Of a stretch of DNA of 38,820 nt, positions 5,294-18,785 are shown piece after piece. The DNA is taken from sequence record SRR16203515_4098, one strand, 5' to 3'. The translations under genes were made by a program, and so were the position numbers. Each line of letters starts with the position of its first letter. The stretch's first letter is position 1. The notes beneath the pieces were generated by a model. The model worked only from the letters and a program-made list of their open reading frames with translations, had not been told where the DNA came from and searched no databases.

Positions 5294-7372
5294 ATGAAAA
5301 AATCGATAATTGCACTGGCGATGACTAGCGCCTGTCTTACGCCGTGGGTAAGGGCTCAACACGATGCATCTGAAATTATTACCGTGGTGGGCAAACCACT
5401 ACGCACCACAGAGGCTGAAGACATTAATTGGACCACCAACACCGACGCTGACTTTGGCGATCAATTAGCCAAACTTGCTGGGGTTTCTATCGCTAGAAAT
5501 GGTCCAGTGACCGGTCTTATTCAATATAGAGGATTATTCGGCGATCGTGTTGGGGTAACCATAGATGGCGTCGATATTGCGGGTGCCGGCCCCAATGCGA
5601 TGGACTCTCCTCTGTCTCATCTACTGCCAGAACCGGGCATGCAGGTGGTACTTTATCGCGGCATAGTACCCGTGAGCGCAGGGGTACAAACGTTAGGCGG
5701 CCAACTTGATATACGCGCCCATGCCACCTCATTATTTGCTCAGCCTAAAGGCGGCCAGTTAAATGTCAGTGCCAGCCTAATCTCGCCTGGCAAAGGCGAA
5801 CAATATCAGGCCAATGGATTATATCGTTGGCATGATGGATTTCTAAGTGCTGCCGTGACCCATCAGCAACGAGATTATTCAGAAACAGCGCGCAATGCGC
5901 AGATACCCAACAGCCATTATTTACGTAATGGCGCTAAAGTGCGCGGCGGCTACGAATGGGGTGATCATCAACTAGCAATAAGTTACCAAAGCCTAAATAC
6001 CAATCACAGCGACACGCCAGCATTGGCGATGGATATTGGTTTTATTGATGCGGCATGGTATCGCTTGAACTACCGTTACCAGCTATCTACTGCGTCCTAC
6101 TTTGCCATCAATATCGTTGGCAACAGCAACCAACACGCCATGGATAACTTTCGCCAGCGCCCACTTGTCATGGCCAGTATGGCGAGGGAAAACCATGCAG
6201 ATTCAGTCGCTCAGGGTGTTAATGCCCACTATGTTACCCGTTTAGGCGCAGGCGAGCTTGATACAGGAGTCCACTTTGCCCATAGCATAAATAACTCTGT
6301 GATCAGTAACCCTAATAACAACAGTTTTTATATCAATAACTTTGCTGCGACGAGCAAAGACACCTATAGCCTATTTTCAGAGTGGCAAGGCACTCTAGAC
6401 AAGGTAGAGTATCTCATTGGTGCGCGCTACACACAGGTGGATACCAACGCAGGTAAGGTGGACTCCAATATGGTTATGATGAATGAGGCCGTTGCCACCC
6501 TGGCCAATAATTTTAATCAGGCCCAACGCAAGCGCACCTTTAATATGCTTGATTTGGCCGCGACCCTAGCCGTACCTATTAGCGATCGGGTGCACTTTTT
6601 TACCGGTGTATCACAGAAAAATCGTGCGCCAAGCTATTATCAATCGTATACCTGGCTGCCGCTTGGCATAACCGGGGGAATGGCCGATGGGTTTAACTAT
6701 ATTGGAGACACCCAGCTAGAACACGAAACGGCGCGACAATTTGAAACCGGCGTGACCTTAAGAACCCCTCACTGGACCTTGTCCCCTCGACTTTTTTATC
6801 AAGACATCGAGAACTATATTACCGGCTCGCCCAGCGAAAACCCGGCAGCCATCATGTTCTCAACCATGATGAGTGGTACCACCCCCTTTCAGTGGGCTAA
6901 CACAGACGCCATCATTAAAGGCGTCGATGTTACGCTCACCGGTGAGCTAAGTGACAACCTAATCCTCAATATGGTGGCGCGCCATAATCATGGGAATAGA
7001 GATGATATTGATGATGCGTTATTCAGAATTGCCCCCGAACAACTTACTACCACATTGAAGTGGCAAACCGGCCTTTTTGATACACCATTATCTACTCACC
7101 TTACCTCTGAGCTTATTGGCCGCCAGTCACATGTTTCTTCATTGCAAGGAGAGCAGGCGACCTCAGGCTACGGGCTTATTCACCTTGGCGCAACCTGGTA
7201 CATTTATGACGGCATCAGCATCGCCACCCAGATTAATAATGCATTTAATAAAGACTACACCCCCCATGTGGCAGGGGTAAATCGAGTATCGGGAGACAGT
7301 TCTATTAACGTAGGCGACAAACTACCCGGCGTAGGACGAGAGTGGCACTTGTCGATACAACTAACCTTTTAA
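5294..7372 (+). CDS. TonB-dependent receptor, Met-rich, OprC-like (possible copper uptake)
   Basis: Signal peptide, IITVVG TonB-box-like segment, plug motif IQYRGLFGDRV...GAGPNAMDSP, NNAFNKDY, C-terminal Phe; Met clusters MASMA, MVMMN, MFSTMMS. Confidence 0.88.
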   Translation: MKKSIIALAMTSACLTPWVRAQHDASEIITVVGKPLRTTEAEDINWTTNTDADFGDQLAKLAGVSIARNGPVTGLIQYRGLFGDRVGVTIDGVDIAGAGPNAMDSPLSHLLPEPGMQVVLYRGIVPVSAGVQTLGGQLDIRAHATSLFAQPKGGQLNVSASLISPGKGEQYQANGLYRWHDGFLSAAVTHQQRDYSETARNAQIPNSHYLRNGAKVRGGYEWGDHQLAISYQSLNTNHSDTPALAMDIGFIDAAWYRLNYRYQLSTASYFAINIVGNSNQHAMDNFRQRPLVMASMARENHADSVAQGVNAHYVTRLGAGELDTGVHFAHSINNSVISNPNNNSFYINNFAATSKDTYSLFSEWQGTLDKVEYLIGARYTQVDTNAGKVDSNMVMMNEAVATLANNFNQAQRKRTFNMLDLAATLAVPISDRVHFFTGVSQKNRAPSYYQSYTWLPLGITGGMADGFNYIGDTQLEHETARQFETGVTLRTPHWTLSPRLFYQDIENYITGSPSENPAAIMFSTMMSGTTPFQWANTDAIIKGVDVTLTGELSDNLILNMVARHNHGNRDDIDDALFRIAPEQLTTTLKWQTGLFDTPLSTHLTSELIGRQSHVSSLQGEQATSGYGLIHLGATWYIYDGISIATQINNAFNKDYTPHVAGVNRVSGDSSINVGDKLPGVGREWHLSIQLTF

Positions 7373-7493
7373 TTAAATCAAAAGAGGTTCATGGGCGCGG
7401 CTTACGAGCCTCGTTTGCAAAGGGTGAATTAAATCGGATGAAACGCATTAACCCAGCGTTGACTTTTGTTTGTCACCGATGAATACTGAGGGC

Positions 7494-7601
7494 ATGAAAT
7501 TACACACTCAGCGGCTTAGCGCATTTTGCCTATTACCGCGCCCATCACAGGCACTAAGCATTATTATTCTCGCTATTCTACGGAATGGGCGGGTAGTCTA
7601 G
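7494..7601 (+). CDS. Leader peptide, 35 aa, Ile/Leu/Val-rich
   Basis: MKLHTQRLSAFCLLPRPSQALSIIILAILRNGRVV*; codon run CTA AGC ATT ATT ATT CTC GCT ATT CTA; overlaps alternative pairing segments. Confidence 0.7.
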   Translation: MKLHTQRLSAFCLLPRPSQALSIIILAILRNGRVV

Positions 7602-7648
7602 TGTGTAAGTAAAAGAATCACTAAACCCGCCGCCAAGGCGGGTTTTTT
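7534..7648 (+). promoter_or_regulatory. Transcription attenuator (1:2, 2:3 antiterminator, 3:4 terminator)
   Basis: TACCGCGCCCAT (7534-7545) pairs with ATGGGCGGGTA (7585-7595); GGCGGGT (7588-7594) pairs with ACCCGCC (7625-7631); terminator AAACCCGCC-gccaa-GGCGGGTTTTTT at 7623-7648. Confidence 0.75.
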
Positions 7649-7689
7649 AATGGCTCGTCTTGCTGGTAAAAGCATAAGAGAAGACAGCC

Positions 7690-9420: not shown

Positions 9421-9430
9421 TATATTAGAC

Positions 9431-10070
9431 TAACGGATAACTTGAAGTGTTAACGTGAAGCTAGGAAGGCTTAGTATTACAAGGTAATCACGATAACAGG
9501 CAAACGTTGAGATCGGCTGATAACAGTGGATGTTATGGACAGAGTCAGCCACGGACGTAAGGAATACGGGCTCACGTTGCAACTTCGGTCAATGTAGCAT
9601 TAGTAGACGCAAACTGTGTCACGGATGGTTAAACAACTGTCAGGATGACATACATGGTTAACAGTGACGTTAACCCCTTGCTTCGCTTATATCGGCAAAG
9701 CACTGAAAGGGACGTATTTGCATCAGCGTTATGCTCCGTTACATGCCAGGTGAACGTAGGTTGGCGTAGATCGCCAATAAAGCCTGCTAGGACGCAAAGG
9801 CAGCAATATTGAATGGATCATTATTGTGTCTGGTTACCTGCATCACTGGCACTGACATGATGTCACCCAGAGCAAAGGATTGTGACCCTATTTGGTAGCG
9901 TTGAAAGTAGACTTCATAGTGGGCTTTCAGCGACACCATCGCGAGGAACGCAGCATGTATTTTCGATAGATGTTGTGAGTTGCCACCCGGCAGCTAGCCT
10001 CTCCCCTCAAAGGCCCATCCCGGCCTTTACATACCTCTGATTTTGGCCCGCCTCTGGCGGGCATTTTTTT
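9431..10070 (+). ncRNA. Large CsrB/Rsm-like (CsrA-sequestering) structured RNA candidate, about 640 nt
   Basis: No ORF >=60 aa; 13 GGA motifs on the + strand, many in hairpin loops; long-range helices; upstream GacA-like box; ends in an intrinsic terminator. The 5' end is estimated from the promoter. Confidence 0.72.
10046..10070 (+). terminator. Rho-independent terminator of the large ncRNA
   Basis: GCCCGCC-TCT-GGCGGGC-ATTTTTTT. Confidence 0.85.
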
Positions 10071-10132
10071 ATCCATTCATGATAAACTAGCTACTGCCTT
10101 TCTAGCCTACTACTAGGTTTCTTGTTATTGCT

Positions 10133-11365
10133 ATGATGCAAAAAAATCGCCATAGGGCCACCTCACTTAACATTTTGTTCTGCGCCCTATTAGCCACTGC
10201 AATAGGACAGAGCGTGATGCTTACCACGCTTCCCTCAATGGGCCGCGAAGCTGGGTTAAGTGAGTTCCATATTGCTATTATTATGTCTAGTTCGGCGCTC
10301 ATTTTTGCCTTTGGCACCAATTTTTGGAGCCGGGTGGCGAAACACCGAGGCTACCGTCAACTTTTAATGGTGGGACTAGCGGGTTATAGCATTGGCACCT
10401 TTGCCTTCGCCGGAGTCTGGTCCCTTGGTTACGCAGGTGTACTTTCTGGTGGCGTGCTATTTATTGCCTTACTACTAACGCGCAGCCTGCAATCAACTAT
10501 TATGTCTGCCTCCCCGCCTTCCGCCGTAGGTTACGCCATTCGCATCAGTAGCGCCCATCAACGTGTTGGGGCCATAAGCCGGGTTACCTCAGCGAATAAC
10601 CTTGGCCAATTAATTGGCCCTGTGTATGCCGGTGCCCTAGTAACATTTGGGCTAGTCACGCCCTTGTATAGTGTGGTTATTTTTACCCTGTTAGCATTTT
10701 CCCTAGTGTGGTGGAAACTCCCTGCGATTGACGCTAGCCCAGCGTCAACAAACCAGACGGCGCAACATCCACAGACTAAGCCAGCAAAGGGGATTACCTT
10801 AGTATTAGTACTCTCTTGCGCGAGTATTTTTTGCGCCATGGCGATGATGCAGCAGACCCTCGGCTTTTTCTTTATCGATCACTATAACAAATCGCCGGTT
10901 CAGTCAGCCCAGCAGGTGGGCATAGCCATGATGTTAAGTGCAGCGACCTCATTATCAATACAAATATTGGTCGTACAAAAAGCGCGATTTTCAGCCGATA
11001 ATTTAATCCGCATTGCCTTACCTCTGCTGTGTGGTGCCTATCTGCTGATGTTTATCCATCAACACATTTACACCTTGTACCTGGCCATGCTGCTTATGGG
11101 CTTAGGTATGGGGATGGGATACCCGTCCTTAGCAGCGGCCGCCACCAGTTACTGCGCAGAAGAAAATCAAGCTAAGGTGACAGGTTATATTACCGCCACG
11201 CCGGCCATGGGCTATATCGTTGGACCGCCAGTGGCAGCCACCCTTTATCAATACAAAATACACGGGCCTTTTTTAGCCGCGAGCATCTTGTTAGCGGTAT
11301 TTGCCGTTGTAGTGTCAGTATCTCTTTATATGAGGAAACGACAACGGCTAGATAGCACAAACTAA
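10133..11365 (+). CDS. MFS transporter
   Basis: About 12 TM segments; WSRVAKHRGYR (motif A-like), LGQLIGPVYAG, GYIVGPPVA. Confidence 0.88.
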   Translation: MMQKNRHRATSLNILFCALLATAIGQSVMLTTLPSMGREAGLSEFHIAIIMSSSALIFAFGTNFWSRVAKHRGYRQLLMVGLAGYSIGTFAFAGVWSLGYAGVLSGGVLFIALLLTRSLQSTIMSASPPSAVGYAIRISSAHQRVGAISRVTSANNLGQLIGPVYAGALVTFGLVTPLYSVVIFTLLAFSLVWWKLPAIDASPASTNQTAQHPQTKPAKGITLVLVLSCASIFCAMAMMQQTLGFFFIDHYNKSPVQSAQQVGIAMMLSAATSLSIQILVVQKARFSADNLIRIALPLLCGAYLLMFIHQHIYTLYLAMLLMGLGMGMGYPSLAAAATSYCAEENQAKVTGYITATPAMGYIVGPPVAATLYQYKIHGPFLAASILLAVFAVVVSVSLYMRKRQRLDSTN

Positions 11366-11458: not shown

Positions 11459-11556
11459 ATATAGAGTCATTTGTGTGTGTGGCTTTGTAGTGTGTAAATG
11501 TGTTTTCCAAGTTATGTTGTGTGTTTTTTTAAGGGGCTTATTAAGCCCCTTTTTTT
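11459..11556 (+). ncRNA. Candidate sigmaE-dependent GU-rich sRNA, about 98 nt
   Basis: Lies between a sigmaE-like promoter and the terminator AAGGGGCTT-ATT-AAGCCCCTT-TTTTT (11531-11556); body is strongly G/T-biased (TTTGTGTGTGTGG, GTTGTGTGTTTTTTT). Confidence 0.55.
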
Positions 11557-11708
11557 ATGCCTGCGAAAAAGCGCGATAGGTTTCTCATCCCCTTCATCCA
11601 TTCCCTGCCGATGTAGGCTTTGCAAAGCTTTGTAAATTATGCTCATCAAGTGACTATCCCGCTTTTCAATAAAACATAAAACACCAATAAATTCATATAT
11701 TTAAAAAC

Positions 11709-11724
11709 TGGAACACCGGTTGCA
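11709..11724 (+). promoter_or_regulatory. sigma54 promoter upstream of the CsbD-like gene
   Basis: TGGAAC-ACCGG-TTGCA, GG-N10-GC spacing. Confidence 0.65.
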
Positions 11725-11778
11725 ATAGTTAAATCAACTGGCAATATGTGTCAGCAACATTGGAAAAGGAGCCATGTT

Positions 11779-11970
11779 ATGAACAACGATCGTATTGAAG
11801 GTAACTGGAAAGAAATGAAAGGTAAGATCCAACAGAAGTGGGGAAAACTTACCGACGATGATATGGATGTTATCGATGGCCGTCGCGAAGAATTGGTCGG
11901 CAAAATTCAGCAGGCTTACGGAAAAAGCCGTGATGAGGCTGAAAAAGAAGTTGATGGTTACCTCAACTAG
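11779..11970 (+). CDS. CsbD/YjbJ family stress protein (63 aa)
   Basis: MNNDRIEGNWKEMKGKIQQKWGKLTDDD...GKIQQAYG; AAGGAG RBS before ATG 11779. Confidence 0.93.
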   Translation: MNNDRIEGNWKEMKGKIQQKWGKLTDDDMDVIDGRREELVGKIQQAYGKSRDEAEKEVDGYLN

Positions 11971-11977
11971 TTTTTAT

Positions 11978-12007
11978 AAAAATAGCCCCTTTCGGGGCTA
12001 TTTTTTT
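11978..12007. terminator. Bidirectional intrinsic terminator
   Basis: AAAAATAGCCCC-TTTC-GGGGCTATTTTTTT between convergent genes. Confidence 0.85.
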
Positions 12008-12012
12008 ATCTA

Positions 12013-12537
12013 TTATTTTTCACTTTTTGGCTGCAGATTATTTCTTACTTCCCTTGCATCAAAGCTTGTCGCACCTGTAGGTCGAGTACCTTTGCCCATT
12101 TCGATACTTAGAATGCTTTCAATTTCACTTTTTTGCGAGCCACCAACATAAATGCCAGTTTCAAACTGTGTAGAAGGATGATACGAAGTACGGCAACTGA
12201 TCACCCCACAGTCTGTCACTCGCGTATAGCGTTGGCTGAACCCCATTTGTGGGCTGGTTTCTACGGTTTCTTTATCTACCATGGTTTCTCTATCGGTCAC
12301 CACAAACCAGTCGTACCCTTCCAACAAGGTAAGCTCTGCGGCACGCAACATAGCGTAATCCATGGCTTTACCTTTATCGGTACCCTTAGCTTTAAAATGG
12401 ACACGGTATTGGGTGTCGCTTAGCTGACTTTCAGTGTAGCCGAAACCACCATTACTGGCTTCTCGGTAATCGGTCTGACTTGCGCATCCCATCATCACCA
12501 CAACTGCAATAAATAAACTAAACTTAGTTTTCATCAT
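12013..12537 (-). CDS. Lipoprotein (CC0125/CC1285-like), last gene of the ECF operon
   Basis: Lipobox MMGC; GYTESQL, YRVHF, LRAAELTLLEGYDWF; start overlaps the end of the anti-sigma gene. Confidence 0.75.
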   Translation of the reverse strand: MMKTKFSLFIAVVVMMGCASQTDYREASNGGFGYTESQLSDTQYRVHFKAKGTDKGKAMDYAMLRAAELTLLEGYDWFVVTDRETMVDKETVETSPQMGFSQRYTRVTDCGVISCRTSYHPSTQFETGIYVGGSQKSEIESILSIEMGKGTRPTGATSFDAREVRNNLQPKSEK

Positions 12538-13315
12538 TCTCTCCTTTCGCAACCTTTGTTGCTTGCCACTGCTGTTTCATTGCGTCCTCTTCTTCTGCTC
12601 TGTTAAGCGGTGCAGAGGACATCAACTTATCTAACTCATGCTCTAAGGCCTTATTGGCACTTGCAGTCTGATACTGTGCTTGTGAACCTGTGTTCAACAA
12701 GGTTTTCGTTGCCTGCAACTGCCAGTTTCCTTGTTGATTTTTACACGCAATCATTACATTTAGTTCATCTTTACCCACCACGTCCGCCTGCCGACAATAT
12801 TCGTCAGTATGACTTGCAAAAGATAACCTAGGTGTAACCTGTAATCCCGACTCCAGTATGCGTGTGTCGCCACTGTGTGCCGTATCGAGTACGGTTGAAA
12901 CGTTGGCCCAATAGCTATTGTCTGCTGTTTCTGGCGAGTTTAGCTGCATATAGCTAAGACCAGCTACTGCAGCGATACCTGCGGCTAACGACAGAGGGAG
13001 CGGCCATTTTTTGCTTGTCTTTGGTCGGCTACCGATAGCCCTAACATTCGATGCAGCCAGGCGTTGGTCGTTGTCACTGTCTGTCGCAGCTGCTGAGGCA
13101 GAAGGTGCGCCACTTAACATATTGACTATGCTCGCCGGTAACGGCTTTTGCGTCGCCTGCTCTGCAGCCTGCCTAACCACCATATCCACCTGTGCCAATT
13201 CGGCTAATCTATCGGCGACTGATGGGGTTTCAATAAGCGCGACTCGCACGGCTTCCATGTCCTCATCGCTTAATTCTGCATCTAAAAATGCAGATAGTTT
13301 TTCATCTGAAATCAT
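12524..13315 (-). CDS. Transmembrane anti-sigma factor
   Basis: N-terminal ISDEKLSAFLDAELS anti-sigma domain, one TM segment (WPLPLSLAAGIAAVAGL), periplasmic domain with YCRQ...ACK; start overlaps the sigma stop. Confidence 0.82.
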   Translation of the reverse strand: MISDEKLSAFLDAELSDEDMEAVRVALIETPSVADRLAELAQVDMVVRQAAEQATQKPLPASIVNMLSGAPSASAAATDSDNDQRLAASNVRAIGSRPKTSKKWPLPLSLAAGIAAVAGLSYMQLNSPETADNSYWANVSTVLDTAHSGDTRILESGLQVTPRLSFASHTDEYCRQADVVGKDELNVMIACKNQQGNWQLQATKTLLNTGSQAQYQTASANKALEHELDKLMSSAPLNRAEEEDAMKQQWQATKVAKGENDEN

Positions 13316-13803
13316 TATGACAATACCTCGTGGTGTGCTCGGAGCGCGCTGCTTAGTTTTGCTCTAGCCCGTGCTAGACGACTCATAATTGTACCTGTCG
13401 GGACCGACAGTATCTCAGAGGCATCTTGATAACTCATGCCTTGTACTGCTACCAAAGAAAGGGTTTCTCTTTGCTCACTTGGCAAGGTTCCCATGGCATT
13501 AGACACTTGTTTTAAGGTAATTTCACTGGTGATCGCCATGTCCATGTCCGACTCCTCTTGTGCCGACAGTTCTGGGGATTGCGCAGCTTGTAATCTTACT
13601 TTTTTCGCCCGATATTCATCAATCCACACGTTGCGGCACACCCGAAATGCCCACGCGATTAGCGTCGCCTCTTTTGGTGACGGCTTAGTGAGTAACTTTT
13701 CTAGGGTAGTTTGTAGTAAATCGTCTGCATCGGGCATATTGCCCGTAAGGGAATACGCAAACTTCCTCAGCGAGGGCACCAGTTCGGTAAGTTCTTCATT
13801 CAT
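13315..13803 (-). CDS. ECF RNA polymerase sigma factor
   Basis: Region 2 DADDLLQ...WAFRVCRNVWIDEYR; region 4 GMSYQDASEILSVPTGTIMSRLARAR. Confidence 0.93.
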   Translation of the reverse strand: MNEELTELVPSLRKFAYSLTGNMPDADDLLQTTLEKLLTKPSPKEATLIAWAFRVCRNVWIDEYRAKKVRLQAAQSPELSAQEESDMDMAITSEITLKQVSNAMGTLPSEQRETLSLVAVQGMSYQDASEILSVPTGTIMSRLARARAKLSSALRAHHEVLS

Positions 13804-13840
13804 TATTGTTTACCTATTATTTAAGCACCTTATATAGCGT

Positions 13841-13901
13841 TAACGTGTCAGCCAATATTTTATTCCCATCCAATTGGAATTTTTTGCCATGATGTTCGTT
13901 A
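13841..13901. promoter_or_regulatory. Back-to-back ECF-type promoters (sigma operon on -, S8 protease on +)
   Basis: Minus strand GGAATA (13866-13861)-N15-CGTTA (13845-13841); plus strand GGAATT (13876-13881)-N15-CGTTA (13897-13901). Confidence 0.7.
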
Positions 13902-14113
13902 ACCTTATGAACTACTAAGGCACGCTGCCAATTAATAGGTTACGTGGCATGATTTGTGCCATCCTCTATAAATAGATGTCGTTCCTGCAAGGCAATGCCC
14001 TATACTGCTGTGCTCCTATCTTGTGACAAAGATGTGCGGATAATGGCTGTACTAATACGCAATGCCACCAAAAGGCGGGGAATATCGCGACAAAGAATCA
14101 CTAAGGGTTAGTT

Positions 14114-15412
14114 ATGAACGCCAAACGACTGCTATCTTTTACGGCTATCTTGATGGCCTTTCATTGTCACGGGCAGTTAGCCTTACCATCACAGGTTGCA
14201 GCCCCTATCACTCCGGTTATAGACAAGCTACCGAAAGACTTAACCGATATTCGTCAAGGGCTTACAAAAAGCATAAGAGAAAAAAATGCAGCCCTTTCTA
14301 CGCTTAGCGAGCCCCTCACAGCACCGCTTTTCTCAATTCCTGAAGCTGTAACCATTAATGCGTCAGGGGGACAGGAATTACTCCGTGAAGTCACCACGCC
14401 TGAAGGCCATATTGCGGTGGAGAGAGAATGGGTCGTGCTAGGGCAACAAGAAGATATTCAAGCATTCACTCACCCCGACATTAGGATACTTGAGTCTCGC
14501 TTCCTACCCTCACTATCGCAATGGGTATTCACCCTCAAGGTTTCCGCGTCGCTAGATGAAGTGTCTAAAATTAGAGACACTCTTCCCCCTGCACTTAAAG
14601 CCCAAATTGCCCGCAATCATGTCTACCTTTCTCAATCGACATCTAATCCAGCGCCATCCTCTCCCTCTTTTGAAACTCGATTACGCTGTGAGAGTCCCAC
14701 CCGTATTGGCCTGATAGACACCCATGTATTTACCGAACATCTAGCCTTTGACCATATAAAGGTGCAGCAACAAGACTTTTTAAACGCTGATATGCCTATC
14801 AGTAAGGTTCATGGTACGGCGGTGGCCAGTTTATTAGCCGAAGAAATGACCGCGGGCAGTCAGTTGTACAATGCCAGCGTTTTTTATCAGCGTAATACGG
14901 TGAGTCAAGGCGCCACCCTTATGGCGCTAATTAATGGGCTGGAATATTTGGCAGCCCAACAAGTAGATACGATCAATATGAGCTTGGCGGGCCCGCACAA
15001 TCCGGTATTAGAAAAGGTGCTGATAGCGGTAGATGCACAGGGTATTCAGGTAGTTTCTGCGGCGGGCAATGAAGGGCCGGCTGCACCACCTACCTTTCCA
15101 GCCGCCTATCCCTCGACAATTGCGGTCACGGCGGTGGATAAAGAGAATTCAATTTATCGCTGGGCGAATCAGGGGGACTATATAGATTTCGCAGCACTAG
15201 GGGTGTCGGTAGAAACTGCCCACCCGACGCAAGAGCATTACAGAGAAACCGGTACATCAATGGCCGCACCGCTCATTAGTGCGCGTTATGCATGCGCCCT
15301 ACGCATAAGCAGAGATAGGGCACAAGCCATGACCCAACTAATCGAGTCTGCTGTTGATGTGGGAGAAACCGGCAAAGATACGGTGTTTGGTTTCGGCATT
15401 ATTCAAAAGTGA
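14114..15412 (+). CDS. Secreted S8 (subtilisin-like) serine peptidase
   Basis: Signal peptide; triad GLIDT, HGTAVASLL, GTSMAAP; INMSLAG, AAGNEG. Confidence 0.9.
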   Translation: MNAKRLLSFTAILMAFHCHGQLALPSQVAAPITPVIDKLPKDLTDIRQGLTKSIREKNAALSTLSEPLTAPLFSIPEAVTINASGGQELLREVTTPEGHIAVEREWVVLGQQEDIQAFTHPDIRILESRFLPSLSQWVFTLKVSASLDEVSKIRDTLPPALKAQIARNHVYLSQSTSNPAPSSPSFETRLRCESPTRIGLIDTHVFTEHLAFDHIKVQQQDFLNADMPISKVHGTAVASLLAEEMTAGSQLYNASVFYQRNTVSQGATLMALINGLEYLAAQQVDTINMSLAGPHNPVLEKVLIAVDAQGIQVVSAAGNEGPAAPPTFPAAYPSTIAVTAVDKENSIYRWANQGDYIDFAALGVSVETAHPTQEHYRETGTSMAAPLISARYACALRISRDRAQAMTQLIESAVDVGETGKDTVFGFGIIQK

Positions 15413-16323
15413 AGCTTGATCCCTAGCTCTGCCAAGGTTTCTTTGTAGTCGGCCCCTACTAGGGTGGAATCATAGTTATCGTATTGGGTACGCAGTGTCA
15501 GATCGGCAAACTCATACAAGGAATACTCAACACTGGCCTTAATACGTTGTCGGTCATCCTCGCGACCTGTGCCACCTTCAACCTCATTGGCGTATTGACG
15601 TTGTTCATATTCATAGGCTAGGGTTACTTCACTGGCCTTAGCAAACAGCGTAAAGGGCAGTGCATAAGACACATCAAGCTTTTTCCCGGCATAATCAAAA
15701 CTTGCATCAACTGCATCTTCATCATGATAGGTGGCCCCCACTTTCAAAAATGCCCCCTGCTTGAAAAACCAAAACACATCGCCTCGTAATGCCTCGGCAT
15801 CACTATTACGCGCTGTTGCCGTGGGCAATTCTTTCTCAATGCTATCAGCACTTAACCGCCAATATGCACGTTCTAAAAAGCCATTGGCCGCAGAAATACC
15901 CGTTTGTTTGTAGGTGAGATAACGCTGACTGTCTAGATCGGCGTCAGCATGGTAATGGTGCATGCCTACTTTTGCCCACGGACTTTGATAGCTAATTTCC
16001 CCAGAATAAGTCGCCACCGCTAAATTAAAATCAGACTGCTCATGATAGTGGGTCCCGGTGTACTGCGCCGACGCAGTGAATGACCAACGCTGAGTAGGCG
16101 TAATGTTGGCTTTTAGCATCGCATTGGTATGGGTAGCGGTATCTGACGTATCGGTATTGGTATCAAGTTCACTCACACTCACATTACTATCATACCCGTA
16201 GCCTACGTAGGCTTTACCGCTTATGTCATACCAACTTTCATCATTTGCATTACCTTCTGCCATGGCTGATGACACACTCATGGCTAATAAACTCATTGCG
16301 GATAATTTGTGAAACTTTTTCAT
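15403..16323 (-). CDS. Outer-membrane beta-barrel protein (possibly DUF560/Slam-barrel-like)
   Basis: Signal peptide; GYGYDSNV start of barrel; alternating aromatic strands; C-terminal LGIKLHF. Confidence 0.75.
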   Translation of the reverse strand: MKKFHKLSAMSLLAMSVSSAMAEGNANDESWYDISGKAYVGYGYDSNVSVSELDTNTDTSDTATHTNAMLKANITPTQRWSFTASAQYTGTHYHEQSDFNLAVATYSGEISYQSPWAKVGMHHYHADADLDSQRYLTYKQTGISAANGFLERAYWRLSADSIEKELPTATARNSDAEALRGDVFWFFKQGAFLKVGATYHDEDAVDASFDYAGKKLDVSYALPFTLFAKASEVTLAYEYEQRQYANEVEGGTGREDDRQRIKASVEYSLYEFADLTLRTQYDNYDSTLVGADYKETLAELGIKLHF

Positions 16324-16389
16324 AAGTCACCTTTTTATAACGACGCGCCCCATCTGACGGGTGCAATTTAGCGGGAAGGGAAGACGGTT

Positions 16390-16432
16390 AAAAAGAAGTG
16401 GCAGTCGCTCGCAAAACTGCAACGACTGCCAC
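16390..16432 (-). terminator. Intra-operon terminator-like hairpin between the repeat-protein gene and the barrel gene
   Basis: GTGGCAGTCG (16398-16407) / CGACTGCCAC (16423-16432), followed on the minus strand by TTCTTTTT. Confidence 0.65.
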
Positions 16433-16452
16433 GCTTACCAACTCAGACGATA

Positions 16453-17400
16453 CTACTGACCGACGACACTGCTGATGTTGCTGGTAATACTTTCTTCTAC
16501 CGAGCCAGCCACTGTGTCGCTTACCGCGGTGGTAACCGTGCTATCAATGGCTGAAGTTAATGCACCTTGTACACTTGAGGTCACCACATCATCGACAACC
16601 GCAGTGACACTGCCTTCTACTGCTGAATTTACGGTTGTGGCTACCGTATTAGTGACGGCACCTTCAACTGCAGAGTCAACCGTAGAACTCACTGTTGTGG
16701 CGAGGGTATTGTTTACAGCACTTTCTGCTTCAGCAGCAGAATTACTCGCAAAGGCACCTTCCAAGGTATTGTCTAGCGTGCCTGTTGCGGCGCCCTCTAG
16801 TGTACCCGTCGCTGAGCCGTCTAACGTGGTGGTTACCGCCGAGGTATCTATGCCGTTATTCGTTTCCTCTGCTGCTTCTTCAGACGTGGTCGTTAAGCCA
16901 CCTAATAGGTTGGTATTAACAGCGCCTTGTAAGCTCGAGGTTACGCCCGACTGTAAGTTTGTCACAGCCGAGGTATTGGCCAATGAAGTAGTGGTGTCTA
17001 CCGCCGTGGCCAACGATGAGTTTGCATTTACCACAGTGTTAGCAAGTAGCGTTGAGGTTTGCTCTGCACTTTCATCAGCTTGTGCTTGCGTCTCGCCTTC
17101 AGCTTCATCCGCCTCGGCGGTTACACTGCCGCTATCAGCATTCGCTTGTGTTTGTGTATTAGATTCAGTATCCGTACTTGCTTGCGTTTCAGTACCCTCA
17201 TTAGCATTGGCCTCTGCCTGTACTGAACCTTGTGCGGCAAGGTTACTTTGAGCTGACATATCAGCGTTGTTGTTACTTGAAGTACTTATCTGAGTGGAAG
17301 ATTGCGACGATGCATCTACGCTAGCAGATAATTCTTGTGCATGAAGGCCCTGAGCAGAAACACCAAGTGCCATAATTATTGCTGTAGTTAACTTATTCAT
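16453..17400 (-). CDS. Secreted acidic low-complexity (S/T/A/V/E/D/N/Q) repeat protein
   Basis: CAGGAG RBS; signal peptide MNKLTTAIIMALGVSAQGLHA; mature part lacks K, R, P, C, W, Y; 4-residue hydrophobic periodicity. Confidence 0.8.
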   Translation of the reverse strand: MNKLTTAIIMALGVSAQGLHAQELSASVDASSQSSTQISTSSNNNADMSAQSNLAAQGSVQAEANANEGTETQASTDTESNTQTQANADSGSVTAEADEAEGETQAQADESAEQTSTLLANTVVNANSSLATAVDTTTSLANTSAVTNLQSGVTSSLQGAVNTNLLGGLTTTSEEAAEETNNGIDTSAVTTTLDGSATGTLEGAATGTLDNTLEGAFASNSAAEAESAVNNTLATTVSSTVDSAVEGAVTNTVATTVNSAVEGSVTAVVDDVVTSSVQGALTSAIDSTVTTAVSDTVAGSVEESITSNISSVVGQ

Positions 17401-17436
17401 CCGTTAATCTCCTGTTTTTCATAATGGACACTGAGA

Positions 17437-17463
17437 TAACGGATGGGTGGGTGAGTTTATTCC
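17437..17463 (-). promoter_or_regulatory. ECF-type promoter upstream of the repeat-protein gene
   Basis: GGAATA (17463-17458)-N16-CGTTA (17441-17437), the same motif as at 13841-13901. Confidence 0.68.
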
Positions 17464-17484
17464 ACTAAAAATGAAAAAAAGTGA

Positions 17485-17515
17485 AAAAACAAAAACGCCG
17501 GATAAAATCCGGCGT
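17485..17515 (-). terminator. Intrinsic terminator downstream of the 17567-18244 gene
   Basis: ACGCCGGAT-AAA-ATCCGGCGT (17495-17515), followed by a T-tract on the minus strand. Confidence 0.7.
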
Positions 17516-17566
17516 GGTGTATATGAAGTATATAGGGCAGTAGATAAATGGACTAACGCAGCTTAC

Positions 17567-18244
17567 TTAATCACTAGCGGCTGTTTCAGAGTACTCCCAC
17601 CAAGGGGTAGAGAAATCGATATCATTTTCATCTAACACCTTGGCATAGCGCACCTGAACGGACTCCCAGAAGGCAGCTTTAAAGATAGGATCGTAAATAA
17701 CGAATTCGCCCTTTTCTTGATATTGAGCAAACAGATCACGATAAGCACCTACCGGGGTTAGCGGATTGCTTTGTTGGAAAGCCACTTCGCCGCCGAAGTC
17801 CTGATACAAAGATTTCGACACTTTCCAGCTTTTCGCCATACCTTGTGCCATTGCAAGCCGGTATCGATCGACATCTTGCTGAGAATAGCCCTCTTGCTCG
17901 GCTAAATCCACAGTCCACATTTTAATTACAGAGTACGCCGACTGAACCTCGGCCTCAGTGGGTTCGATATTATTTTTTTGCGCATAATCAGCCAATACCG
18001 ACTCAGAAATTTTTTCACCTAGCGCACGTTGGGCGAGTATTTGACGAATTTCATGGTCAGATTTATCTGTCAGAATAGCTTGAAACCTATCCACATCTTG
18101 TTGGGACGGTTGTAACTCACTGTTGGCTATTGGCTTATCAAATAAGCGCGCAATTATTTCATTTGCCGCCTGAGGCGTATTGATCCCAAGCGACACTAAG
18201 ATGGCACCGAATAGCACCATGGGGATAATGTCAGAACGTGTCAT
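17567..18244 (-). CDS. Hypothetical exported protein
   Basis: Likely start MTRSDIIPMVLFGAILVSLG at ATG 18244, with an N-terminal hydrophobic segment; no family recognised. Confidence 0.6.
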   Translation of the reverse strand: MTRSDIIPMVLFGAILVSLGINTPQAANEIIARLFDKPIANSELQPSQQDVDRFQAILTDKSDHEIRQILAQRALGEKISESVLADYAQKNNIEPTEAEVQSAYSVIKMWTVDLAEQEGYSQQDVDRYRLAMAQGMAKSWKVSKSLYQDFGGEVAFQQSNPLTPVGAYRDLFAQYQEKGEFVIYDPIFKAAFWESVQVRYAKVLDENDIDFSTPWWEYSETAASD

Positions 18245-18371
18245 GTTAAGTACTTCCCTAGATTTTTTGCTAACAGCATGAACACAAAACGTATTCTTTA
18301 GAATTATTAGAATTTTCCATTCGTTTTGCACAATGACGTCGCTGAAGCCTACTACTTTAGGTTATATTGGC

Positions 18372-18785
18372 TTAAATATCCACCTTTTTACGGAGTGACT
18401 TACGCGCACTTCGCTGCTTTTTCGCTTCACCTCGTCGCGCTTTCACTGCACGACTTAACCGCGTAGGCTTGCGTGGCTTTTGCTTTTTGGTGCTATTAAC
18501 AATCCATGAAATTAATCGCTTAAGGGCATCTTCTCGATTCAACTCCTGGGTGCGAAAGTTTTGCGCCTTTAACACAAACACGCCTTCCGTGGTTACCCGG
18601 GTATCATTTAAATTTAATAGTGTGTCTTTCATCGCTTGCGGTAGCGATGAATTTACAATGTCAAAGCGCAAATGGATGGCGCTGCTCACTTTGTTGACAT
18701 TCTGACCACCCGCACCCTGTGCCCGGATGGCCTGCATCTCCACTTCGCTATCGTCTATGGCCACAGAAGGTCTTATTACAAGCAT
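18372..18785 (-). CDS. arfB: Alternative ribosome-rescue peptidyl-tRNA hydrolase ArfB (YaeJ)
   Basis: AIRAQGAGGQNVNKVSSAIHLRFD with the GGQ motif; basic C-terminal tail. Confidence 0.95.
   Translation of the reverse strand: MLVIRPSVAIDDSEVEMQAIRAQGAGGQNVNKVSSAIHLRFDIVNSSLPQAMKDTLLNLNDTRVTTEGVFVLKAQNFRTQELNREDALKRLISWIVNSTKKQKPRKPTRLSRAVKARRGEAKKQRSARKSLRKKVDI

Follow-up and report, generated by a model that had tools for sequence, protein, structure and literature searches.

A 38,820-nucleotide stretch of DNA from sequence record SRR16203515_4098 (this whole stretch is referred to below as the window) carries a six-gene module in which one extracytoplasmic function (ECF) sigma factor very probably serves three promoters beside its own gene. 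By the position of a shared motif, the module comprises three transcription units, encoding the sigma factor, its anti-sigma factor and a lipoprotein; an S8 protease; and a secreted repeat protein followed by an outer-membrane barrel. The core of sigma factor, anti-sigma factor and divergent subtilase is a known kind of module, belonging with the ECF26 group, and the barrel appears from profile comparison to be related to the Slam pores of type 11 secretion. On balance, we read the whole as a device for surface export that resembles type 11 secretion, is gated by a sigma factor and is coupled to a subtilase. The best matches of the window proteins point to an Alteromonas-like gammaproteobacterium.

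Promoters and gene content of the module

A pattern search with GGAATW-N15/16-CGTTA returned exactly three matches in the window, against a mean of 0.08 in 100 dinucleotide-preserving shuffles, none of which reached three. The sites read GGAATA-N15-CGTTA at 13866-13841(-), GGAATT-N15-CGTTA at 13876-13901(+) and GGAATA-N16-CGTTA at 17463-17437(-), just as a sequence-only reading of the window had given them before the three units. All three are intergenic and each is oriented toward a gene start, lying 38 nt from the ATG of the sigma gene, 37 nt from that of the repeat-protein gene and 213 nt from the first possible start of the S8 gene. Alignment with six close relatives showed no change in the CGTTA boxes or in the two -35 boxes that stand back to back (AAAAAATTCC / GGAATAAA), amid spacers and surroundings that have diverged.

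The comparison was extended to 301 sampled genomes of the bacterial family, 66 of which, A. profundi included, encode a full-length barrel at E<=5.6e-46. The other 65 barrel-bearing genomes supply the 65 family loci used throughout, an even sample with one locus per species; they were selected by the barrel profile, and counts over them gauge what accompanies the barrel rather than what accompanies the sigma factor. A match to GGAAT-N15-18-CGT precedes the sigma gene in 55 of 57 family loci and the repeat-type gene in all 49 that have one, and 138 of the 179 pattern matches in 1.32 Mb of family loci fall at sigma, S8 or repeat-gene sites. The significance of the motif derives from this clustering, placement and conservation and not from the word itself. 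Judged by placement and conservation, the single sigma factor with three local promoters proposed by the sequence-only reading is well supported, and a compact regulon lying beside its sigma gene is very probable.

The 213-nt leader of the S8 gene also contains a dyad, TGGCATGATTTGTGCCA, at 13945-13961, which is kept amid diverged sequence in the window and in loci L001, L044, L046 and L047, and which occurs also in 2 of 36 family loci. In either direction the dyad has GG-N10-GC spacing, as in a sigma-54 promoter, for which this is the consensus spacing; it could be a sigma-54-type promoter or, equally, a regulator site or a small hairpin. An RNA hairpin suggested by an apparent compensatory change in L002, within this dyad, was rejected, because the aligned L002 stretch lies inside the S8 coding region. 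An Rfam scan of 11500-18500, S8 leader included, gave nothing near any threshold.

The window holds the six open reading frames (ORFs) of the sequence-only reading, for sigma factor, anti-sigma factor, lipoprotein, S8 protease, barrel and repeat protein (Table 1). The gene calls are the longest ORFs, and the product types were confirmed by Pfam, NCBIfam and inspection of the ORFs. Products other than the sigma factor are predicted to be envelope-targeted, as read off the N-termini (a basic stretch followed by a hydrophobic one and by AxA or a lipobox, judged by eye), the C-terminal Phe of the barrel and the N-terminal helix of the barrel model, a helix of low confidence in the AlphaFold2 (AF2) prediction. 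The S8 and barrel genes are convergent and share a 10-nt 3' overlap at 15403-15412 with no terminator between them; the two transcripts would overlap as antisense.

Table 1. Genes, predicted promoters and hairpins of the module, in window coordinates
Feature	Position	Strand	Basis or remark
Bidirectional terminator-like hairpin ending the sigma operon and the opposite csbD gene	11978..12005	.	After the lipoprotein gene
CC0125/CC1285-family lipoprotein	12013..12552	-	NCBIfam NF047637
Single-pass anti-sigma factor, 263 aa	12524..13315	-	ORF; homology to S. meliloti EcfR6 along its length
ECF sigma factor, 162 aa, ECF26-like	13315..13803	-	Pfam; similarity to S. meliloti rpoE6 region
ECF26-type promoter of the sigma/anti-sigma/lipoprotein operon; GGAATAAA -35, CGTTA -10	13841..13866	-	Motif, alignment
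ECF26-type promoter of the S8 gene; GGAATTTTTT -35, CGTTA -10	13876..13901	+	Back to back with the sigma promoter
Pre-pro-subtilase, 432 aa, with signal peptide and pro-region	14114..15412	+	Pfam S8, alignments
Outer-membrane barrel, 306 aa, predicted 14 strands	15403..16323	-	AF2 model, hhalign
GC-rich hairpin core with U-tract, attenuator or terminator-like	16401..16420	-	Between repeat gene and barrel gene
Repeat protein, 315 aa: acidic, low-complexity, predicted secreted; (V-x-x-x)n period-4 region at the C-terminus	16453..17400	-	Candidate cargo
ECF26-type promoter of the repeat-protein/barrel operon	17437..17463	-	Motif
Terminator-like hairpin of the upstream gene, insulating the repeat/barrel unit	17495..17515	-	Just upstream of the repeat promoter

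Relation to the ECF26 group

Pfam recovers Sigma70_r2 (1.3e-10) and Sigma70_r4_2 (3.9e-14) in the sigma factor, which matches the rpoE6 region of Sinorhizobium meliloti at 38% identity (E 1e-31). Having regions 2 and 4 only and resembling RpoE6, a member of the group, it is assigned here to ECF26 on domain content and similarity. ECF26, treated also in Staron 2009 and Rhodius 2013 as cited there, is described by Casas-Pastor 2021 (PMC7826278) as proteobacterial, with an anti-sigma factor at position +1 that has one transmembrane helix, a predicted GGAATAAA / GTT promoter, and a subtilase at position -1 in subgroups s4, s10, s14 and s27. The window agrees in each respect. The start of the anti-sigma gene overlaps the stop of the sigma gene at position +1, and its product has a single hydrophobic span at residues 105-123 (Kyte-Doolittle 19-residue mean 1.47), preceded by an anti-sigma-like N-terminal region that is conserved across 39 aligned sequences. 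The subtilase gene stands at -1, and a predicted autoregulatory promoter with an GGAATAAA -35 and a (C)GTT -10 element precedes the sigma gene.

The periplasmic domain of the anti-sigma factor has two conserved cysteines, C174 and C191, and a YQTAS motif common to S. meliloti EcfR6. Residues 150-263 weakly match the '17 kDa common-antigen' family PF16587, at 20.7 bits and below the cut-off, and a PDB sequence search gave no match for the anti-sigma factor or the lipoprotein. The Cys-pair domain may sense redox state or thiols; a response to sulfite has been described for other ECF26 sigma factors of S. meliloti.

Three differences from the published description (PMC7826278) were noted. The group is given there as mainly alpha- and betaproteobacterial, whereas the present module is gammaproteobacterial. 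A zinc finger is described in the anti-sigma factors, and the window anti-sigma lacks one, with no His or Cys, and hence no HxxxCxxC, in its first 100 residues. EcfR6 likewise lacks HxxxCxxC in its N-terminal region; since it is an accepted ECF26 partner, the zinc finger is not universal in the group. Finally, part 9 of the supplement lists no outer-membrane barrel with the subtilase subgroups, although the subgroup tables may say more.

The closest studied counterpart is the S. meliloti RpoE6-EcfR6 pair with the divergent serine protease SMa0142, which belongs to subgroup s14; RpoE6 was assigned to ECF26 by Lang 2018 (PMC6180224) and by Casas-Pastor 2021 (PMC7826278). That locus shares with the window a homologous sigma factor, anti-sigma factor (23% identity, Cys-pair domain included) and S8 protease (39% identity), the divergent layout and a GGAATA...CGTT promoter. 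According to Lang 2018 (PMC6180224), the RpoE6/SMa0142 divergent layout is 'widely conserved', and RpoE6 overexpression induces SMa0142 (log2 4.7) from the GGAATA...CGTT promoter, along with its own anti-sigma gene and neighbouring hypothetical genes; that paper reports no function found for the system. A glyoxalase and a DUF6065 protein are among the other local RpoE6 targets described. The 24 kb of pSymA that were examined contain no barrel, CC0125-type lipoprotein or period-4 repeat protein. A sigma match on a Phaeobacter plasmid proved to lie in another ECF26 context (catalase) and was set aside as uninformative.

Two further features of the S. meliloti locus (L043, pSymA 68000-92000) were recorded. 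The gene directly after ecfR6, at 12291-12773(+), encodes a small secreted protein that contains a long run of (NSS)n, and in SMa0142 itself, at 9423-10823(-), the signal peptide is followed by an acidic, low-complexity stretch of poly-Asp/Gly-Ser. ECF26-subtilase modules may thus commonly have secreted partners of acidic or low-complexity sequence.

The barrel and its relation to Slam pores

The AF2 model of the barrel, built on an 18-sequence alignment, has 14 strands, short loops and no plug, at a confidence (pLDDT) of 88. Slam barrels, too, have 14 strands. Foldseek placed OmpG and CymA at the top of its matches, at 9-12% identity and with TM scores of 0.59/0.64 to OmpG 2iwv; the likeness to these channels is in fold only, as the loops of the window barrel are short and its conserved residues are family-specific. 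The family BBP2_2 (putative beta-barrel porin 2, PF10082) is matched in part and at the borderline, at 24.3 bits against a cut-off of 23.7, residues 234-305 aligning to the last 67 of 378 profile positions.

Sensitive profile comparison revealed a clearer relationship. A search of 1.84 billion representatives returned 442 barrel clusters at E<=1e-30, and a 140-sequence set was assembled from the window protein and 139 of the best 150 matches, 11 short or two-piece matches being excluded. Within this set 75 of 140 representatives match PF04575 (SlipAM), with a best E of 1.5e-16, and 90 of 140 match BBP2_2 at E<=0.01. For hhalign, five bona fide DUF560 proteins from the sampled genomes (93-220 bits to PF04575) served as the comparison set. 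The 18-sequence family of the module aligned to it with 94.3% probability and E 9.6e-8 over 232 columns, and the 140-sequence set with 97.4% and E 1.2e-11 over 332 columns, up to the C-terminus. One relative, P0151 (508 aa), has an N-terminal tetratricopeptide repeat (TPR) domain before the barrel, as in Slam, and is the sole such case among the 140. With a PF04575 score of 49.6 bits and a weak TPR_Slam match, P0151 forms a bridge between the barrel family and the classical Slam architecture. From these alignments, homology of the barrel to Slam-type pores can be asserted with high confidence. Sequence comparison thus makes it a TPR-less distant relative of the DUF560/Slam pore; it is not filed as a type 11 member, because it has neither a TPR domain nor a neighbouring cargo with a C-terminal 8-stranded barrel.

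Likeness to Slam and type 11 systems extends to a candidate cargo gene next door, in addition to the 14-stranded barrel. The known cargo, as described for type 11 secretion, is unified by a C-terminal 8-stranded barrel domain, which the neighbours in the module lack. Accounts of type 11 secretion describe characterised systems from host-associated bacteria only, with cargo that has such a beta-barrel domain, and nine of ten DUF560 sequence clusters as uncharacterised, with water and soil organisms as their main source. Secretion via a type 11 pore is reported for a Pls-like cargo that has both a long repeat of helical structure and the C-terminal barrel domain, and recognisable cargo is reported to be rare at marine cluster 3 pores (PMC12282271). 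The word 'sigma' does not occur in the main texts of two type 11 papers, one of them PMC12282271, whose supplementary tables may list an association. A possible second connection emerged from the same literature. Among the domains that accompany marine cluster 3 pores, DUF1194 ranks first (102/145 loci), and glyoxalase domains are common too (PMC12282271). DUF1194 is also given in the genomic context of ECF26 subgroup s12 (Casas-Pastor 2021, PMC7826278), and S. meliloti RpoE6 has a glyoxalase gene among its targets (PMC6180224). This overlap in DUF1194 and glyoxalase may constitute a second, independent link between ECF26 and type 11 secretion, in Rhodobacteraceae.

The repeat protein, the subtilase and the two forms of the module

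The repeat protein opens with a predicted signal peptide, continues with a stretch of about 190 residues enriched in S, T, Q, N, D, E and A, and closes with a period-4 region, the C-terminal part of about 100 residues that carries V, I or L at every fourth position and ends in G-Q or G-L. Its period-4.0 signal exceeds that of all 300 shuffles, and no such signal was found in the window S8 protease, barrel or anti-sigma factor (300 or 200 shuffles of whole proteins were used for these statistics). No family was found for it in Pfam or NCBIfam, and its matches in Protein Atlas were to unnamed clusters only. In an AF2 model from 30 sequences the N-terminus is disordered and residues 101-171 and 187-313 form long helices at pLDDT 65-83.

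The repeat gene is followed by the barrel gene behind the motif in all 49 family loci with such a protein. The hairpin that separates them folds at -43.3 kcal/mol (z -2.6), and a hairpin with a U-tract stands directly 3' of the repeat gene in the window and in L001, L044 and L002, in unrelated sequences. This placement suggests higher expression of the repeat gene than of the barrel gene.

The S8 protein is recognised by Pfam PF00082 (6.4e-25). Its catalytic D202, H233 and S382 and the oxyanion N319 are invariant in 10 aligned sequences, and residues 183-430 align to mature subtilisin BPN' 13-268, which points to pro-cleavage near NHVY171. The pro-region is conserved as well, with W106, N168 and Y171 invariant or nearly so. 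With triad and Asn in place, the sequence identifies it as a pre-pro-subtilase.

Comparison of the family loci revealed two arrangements of the period-4 repeat. In the 44 lipoprotein-bearing loci the S8 protease is short (431-508 aa) and the gene before the barrel encodes a low-complexity protein, with a summed S+T+A+V+N+Q+D+E+G fraction of 0.78-0.91 (two just under the 0.78 cut). The period-4 signal was detected in the separate repeat protein of 27/28 and 15/16 of these loci and in the S8 protease of 0/44 at p<0.01. None of the 13 sigma-bearing loci without the lipoprotein has a separate repeat protein, and one has no S8 gene. The S8 proteases of these loci are mostly long (462-1013 aa), and 8 of 12 carry period-4 arrays (EDDI, EDDV, EEDT-EDEV-EDEI) in tens to >100 copies before the pro-region; the distant loci L006 and L050 have S8-fused arrays of EDEL, EDEI and EDEF. 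Read across these sequences, a period-4 repeat goes with the S8 protease either as a separate protein (in trans) or as part of the protease itself (in cis), and the lipoprotein occurs alongside the separate protein.

This cis/trans distribution is the main argument for supposing that protease and repeat region act together, and it makes it conceivable, if somewhat less than evenly balanced, that the S8 protease acts on or with the repeat region. Either the S8 protease, whose gene converges on the barrel gene with an overlapping 3' end, or the repeat region may be the conserved physical partner of the barrel. A complex prediction of S8 (23-432) and the repeat C-terminus (186-315) with the barrel (29-306) as partner, run with alignments unused, scored 0.00 against a mark of 0.34 and speaks neither for nor against an assembly.

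The subtilases with giant acidic tetrapeptide arrays include L101:3936-6977(-), L097:4217-6469(+), L117:2456-4534(-), L111:4510-6294(+) and L099:4013-5917(-). Their arrays (EDDI, EDDV, EEDT/EDEV/EDEI and others) sit between the signal peptide and the pro-region, and in the longest of these proteins, of 1013 aa, the array takes up roughly 500 residues. In some fused-array loci an acidic lipoprotein of about 850 aa adjoins the barrel (L099:384-2933(+), L097:7658-10186(+), L102:7586-10138(-), L105:2677-5238(-)). It contains 8-9 DUF5666 repeats in the two proteins scanned (L099 and L097), and an ECF-type motif precedes its gene in L099, L102 and L105.

The lipoprotein and the distribution of the module

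The small lipoprotein of the window matches NF047637 at 160.7 bits against a cut-off of 40, covering 5-169 of the 169 profile positions, and a lipobox, MMGC, can be read from its sequence, in keeping with the lipoprotein family. The likely start of its gene is an internal ATG some codons in, and the gene overlaps the 3' end of the anti-sigma gene. It was found in 44 of the 65 family loci, always alongside a separate repeat protein. Genomes G001, G002 and G155 each encode two CC0125-family members, one in the module and a second, more divergent one (73-83 bits) elsewhere.

All six genes were found in the same order and chromosomal place in A. profundi, A. salexigens and four metagenomic contigs (loci L001, L002 and L044-L047). 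Identity to A. profundi is 65-87% for the sigma factor, anti-sigma factor, lipoprotein, S8 protease and barrel and 40% for the repeat protein. Among the 65 family loci, an S8 gene lies by the barrel gene in 59, convergent with it in 57 and within 100 nt or overlapping in 50, and the sigma and anti-sigma genes are present in 57. The remaining eight have no sigma gene in the stretch examined, two of them ending at a contig end beside the barrel; in 5/5 'split' genomes tested, an anti-sigma homologue was located 3-14 kb from the barrel on the same contig. The sequence-only reading had staked itself on the genes co-occurring elsewhere, and across the family they do.

The barrel is rare outside the family, with three full-length matches (E<=1e-50), one of them in G609, among 400 other sampled genomes of the class. 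A word-indexed protein search had yielded 6 barrel proteins and pattern-based locus scans 12 and 11 loci, an apparent rarity that the profile searches showed to be a limit of sensitivity. In distant gammaproteobacterial metagenome-assembled genomes the barrel, S8 protease, sigma factor and anti-sigma factor are kept and the lipoprotein and repeat protein are absent.

In lineages without the repeat protein a DUF1800 gene adjoins the barrel (L006:7663-9885(-), L004, L050, L101:218-2857(-)), followed in L006 by a DUF1501 gene at 6281-7651(-). A nearly identical ECF-type site, GGAATAAGCATsACAAGTCTTCGTT, precedes the DUF1800 gene in L004, L006 and L050, and the same 25-mer is kept in L008, although the DUF1800 gene is gone there.

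Proposed mechanism and alternative explanations

We hypothesize that the single-pass anti-sigma factor, with its periplasmic Cys pair, would hold the sigma factor until an envelope signal arrives, as is expected from its family. The released sigma factor would then read the three GGAATAAA-N15/16-CGTTA promoters, a step for which sigma-dependence is experimental in the S. meliloti homologue only, and the outputs would be the pre-pro-subtilase, the operon for repeat protein and barrel, and the sigma operon itself, lipoprotein included. The barrel, which profile comparison relates to Slam, would act as outer-membrane conduit or anchor, and the repeat protein, as its operon partner, would be the most likely cargo, made in excess over the barrel. 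The subtilase may process the repeat region or be tethered by it, as the cis/trans distribution hints; in lineages with neither a separate repeat protein nor the lipoprotein, a repeat of this type forms an N-terminal extension of the protease. Export or anchoring of the repeat region by the barrel is suggested by the conserved operon, the hairpin and the DUF560/Slam homology, and we regard this as slightly less than an even call. More tentatively still, and with considerable doubt, the module might represent a sigma-gated branch of type-11-like secretion with a minimal TPR-less pore and cargo that lacks a beta-barrel targeting domain. It is a similarly speculative idea that the cargo of such a branch would be a polyanionic period-4 rod, either free or as the N-terminal arm of the subtilase, so that the cell surface would come to bear a protease, or an acidic coat trimmed by one. 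Equally uncertain is a surface display that would respond to an envelope signal sensed by the Cys-pair domain of the anti-sigma factor.

Several observations weigh against the export-device reading. The window barrel has no PF04575 match at E<=0.01 in the Pfam scan, which gave a borderline BBP2_2 and a weak LptD match only; it lacks an N-terminal TPR domain, the mature protein opening with strand 1; and no TbpBBD/lipoprotein C 8-stranded domain was found by Pfam or NCBIfam in the repeat protein, lipoprotein or S8 protease. The model of the repeat protein has a mean pLDDT of 58, and its V/T/S-rich composition would suit beta structure too. The parts are also separable: barrel and sigma/anti-sigma genes occur without S8 in L008:5759-7975 and L118:6518-8974, and S8 and sigma genes without a barrel in S. 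meliloti. As regards the promoters, the strict pattern was matched before the S8 gene in only 31 of 56 family loci, the distant gammaproteobacterial loci L003, L005, L007 and L009 have no motif before the barrel, and in L004, L006 and L050 the motif faces away from the barrel, toward the DUF1800 gene. A separate caveat concerns the motif word: scanned genome-wide, as the sequence-only reading had proposed, the loose pattern was no commoner than its reversed control in two relatives (25 vs 25 and 11 vs 14). Only 3 of the 24 non-cluster sites examined there lie between genes and have the start of a gene on the same strand no more than 400 nt away (6 of the 25 sites in G001 lie outside these 24), and no further regulon targets could be defined from the scan of these two genomes.

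The lack of genome-wide enrichment is also what would be expected if the shared motif were due to chance or to another sigma factor and the genes were mere neighbours. Three matches in the window against 0.08 expected, position-specific conservation over dozens of species with variable spacers, and the experimental precedent in S. meliloti (PMC6180224) make this explanation highly improbable. An envelope-stress or quality-control module is a more serious competitor, in which a periplasmic S8 protease removes damaged or inducing proteins, in the manner of DegP under sigma-E, or cleaves the anti-sigma factor, the barrel is an ordinary diffusion channel and the repeat protein a periplasmic buffer or a substrate. 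It would fit the sigma factor, anti-sigma factor and S8 protease being the sole parts common to alpha- and gammaproteobacteria, which would tie the protease to signalling or to the stress itself; the conservation of the sensor domain from S. meliloti to Alteromonas; and a plugless barrel with a fold nearest to the open monomeric OmpG and CymA channels. Left unexplained by it, however, are the export-pore homology of the barrel, the strict repeat-gene/barrel operon and the cis/trans period-4 repeat. In addition, the S. meliloti study reports that the stresses known to set off the general stress regulon left the RpoE6 targets uninduced and that ECF sigma mutants had no envelope-stress phenotype (PMC6180224). 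Overall, we judge quality control unlikely.

The same OmpG/CymA-like 14-stranded open fold could instead serve nutrient acquisition, with a released S8 protease digesting external protein and the barrel taking up the resulting (acidic) peptides. Chitoporin works with chitinase in this way, and CymA with cyclodextrin enzymes; a conserved Arg and Asp cluster, probably at the outer rim judging by the model topology, and an S8 catalytic domain closest to true subtilisins would suit such a role. No S8 route across the outer membrane is known, though, and the repeat protein, the lipoprotein and the giant S8-fused acidic arrays would have no role. Control by an ECF sigma factor and a membrane anti-sigma factor is unusual for bulk proteolysis, and the barrel is homologous to Slam-type exporters, so nutrient acquisition is improbable. 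The likeness to Pseudomonas Fap drawn by the sequence-only reading holds as an analogy only. In Fap, one cluster encodes a repeat protein together with its dedicated barrel and a peptidase, and in a Fap- or curli-like amyloid system the repeat protein would be a fibre subunit exported via the barrel and matured by the peptidase. A V/T/S-rich secreted repeat protein of composition suited to beta structure is in keeping with that, as its gene precedes that of a barrel and lies near a peptidase gene, and as the protein is probably in stoichiometric excess. Neither the six proteins nor the 140 barrel relatives gave a Fap or curli family match in Pfam or NCBIfam, however, and the repeat unit is 4 residues long, against about 20 for the strand-turn-strand unit, and is modelled by AF2 as helix. 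The Fap peptidase is a cysteine peptidase, whereas that of the module is S8; FapF has 12 strands and forms trimers, unlike the 14-stranded, Slam-like barrel; we know of no ECF switch in Fap; and the (E/D)3-hydrophobic array that other lineages fuse to the protease does not resemble an amyloid subunit. An amyloid system is thus very improbable. ECF sigma factors with membrane anti-sigma factors also drive secreted serine proteases of the S1/HtrA type in sigma-E/RseA/DegP of E. coli and SigE/PepD of mycobacteria, whose regulons are large and scattered. The present module differs from these in sigma group, in having an S8 rather than an S1/HtrA protease, and in its compact local regulon.

Novelty and significance

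The export-device reading would join known and apparently new parts. The sequence-only reading knew of no description of the system, which does not hold for the ECF26 sigma/anti-sigma/subtilase core, treated in PMC7826278 and PMC6180224, but stands for the barrel and repeat partners as far as the main texts of these sources go. In the literature searched, including the ECF papers and the two type 11 papers, no description of the gammaproteobacterial module was found, nor any account of a DUF560-like barrel that lacks TPRs, is under ECF control and is accompanied by a subtilase and tetrapeptide-repeat proteins, although supplementary tables may list the association. Three elements were not found in print and are apparently new: the barrel as a 14-stranded TPR-less DUF560/Slam relative in this setting, its operon behind a secreted acidic protein with a hydrophobic residue at every fourth position, and the occurrence of the period-4 repeat either as a separate protein or as S8-fused (E/D)3-hydrophobic arrays. 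The giant subtilase arrays are a striking protein feature in their own right.

The module joins an ECF26-subtilase switch to a type-11-like pore in marine bacteria that are culturable and non-pathogenic. It supplies the protease with a partner in the outer membrane, with a candidate for its substrate or tether, and with a clean switch of three promoters. At 66 of 301 family genomes and 442 public clusters, the barrel is common enough to matter for marine surface biology. Should the export reading prove wrong, a well-defined and conserved ECF regulon remains, useful but ordinary. ECF26 sigma factors with a divergent subtilase are widespread, and the studied example, S. meliloti RpoE6, is still without a function in the account of its regulon (PMC6180224). 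If true, a sigma-gated type-11-like branch would bring a new cargo class and a new regulatory logic to the type 11 family, and would provide a first function for the widespread ECF26-subtilase modules.

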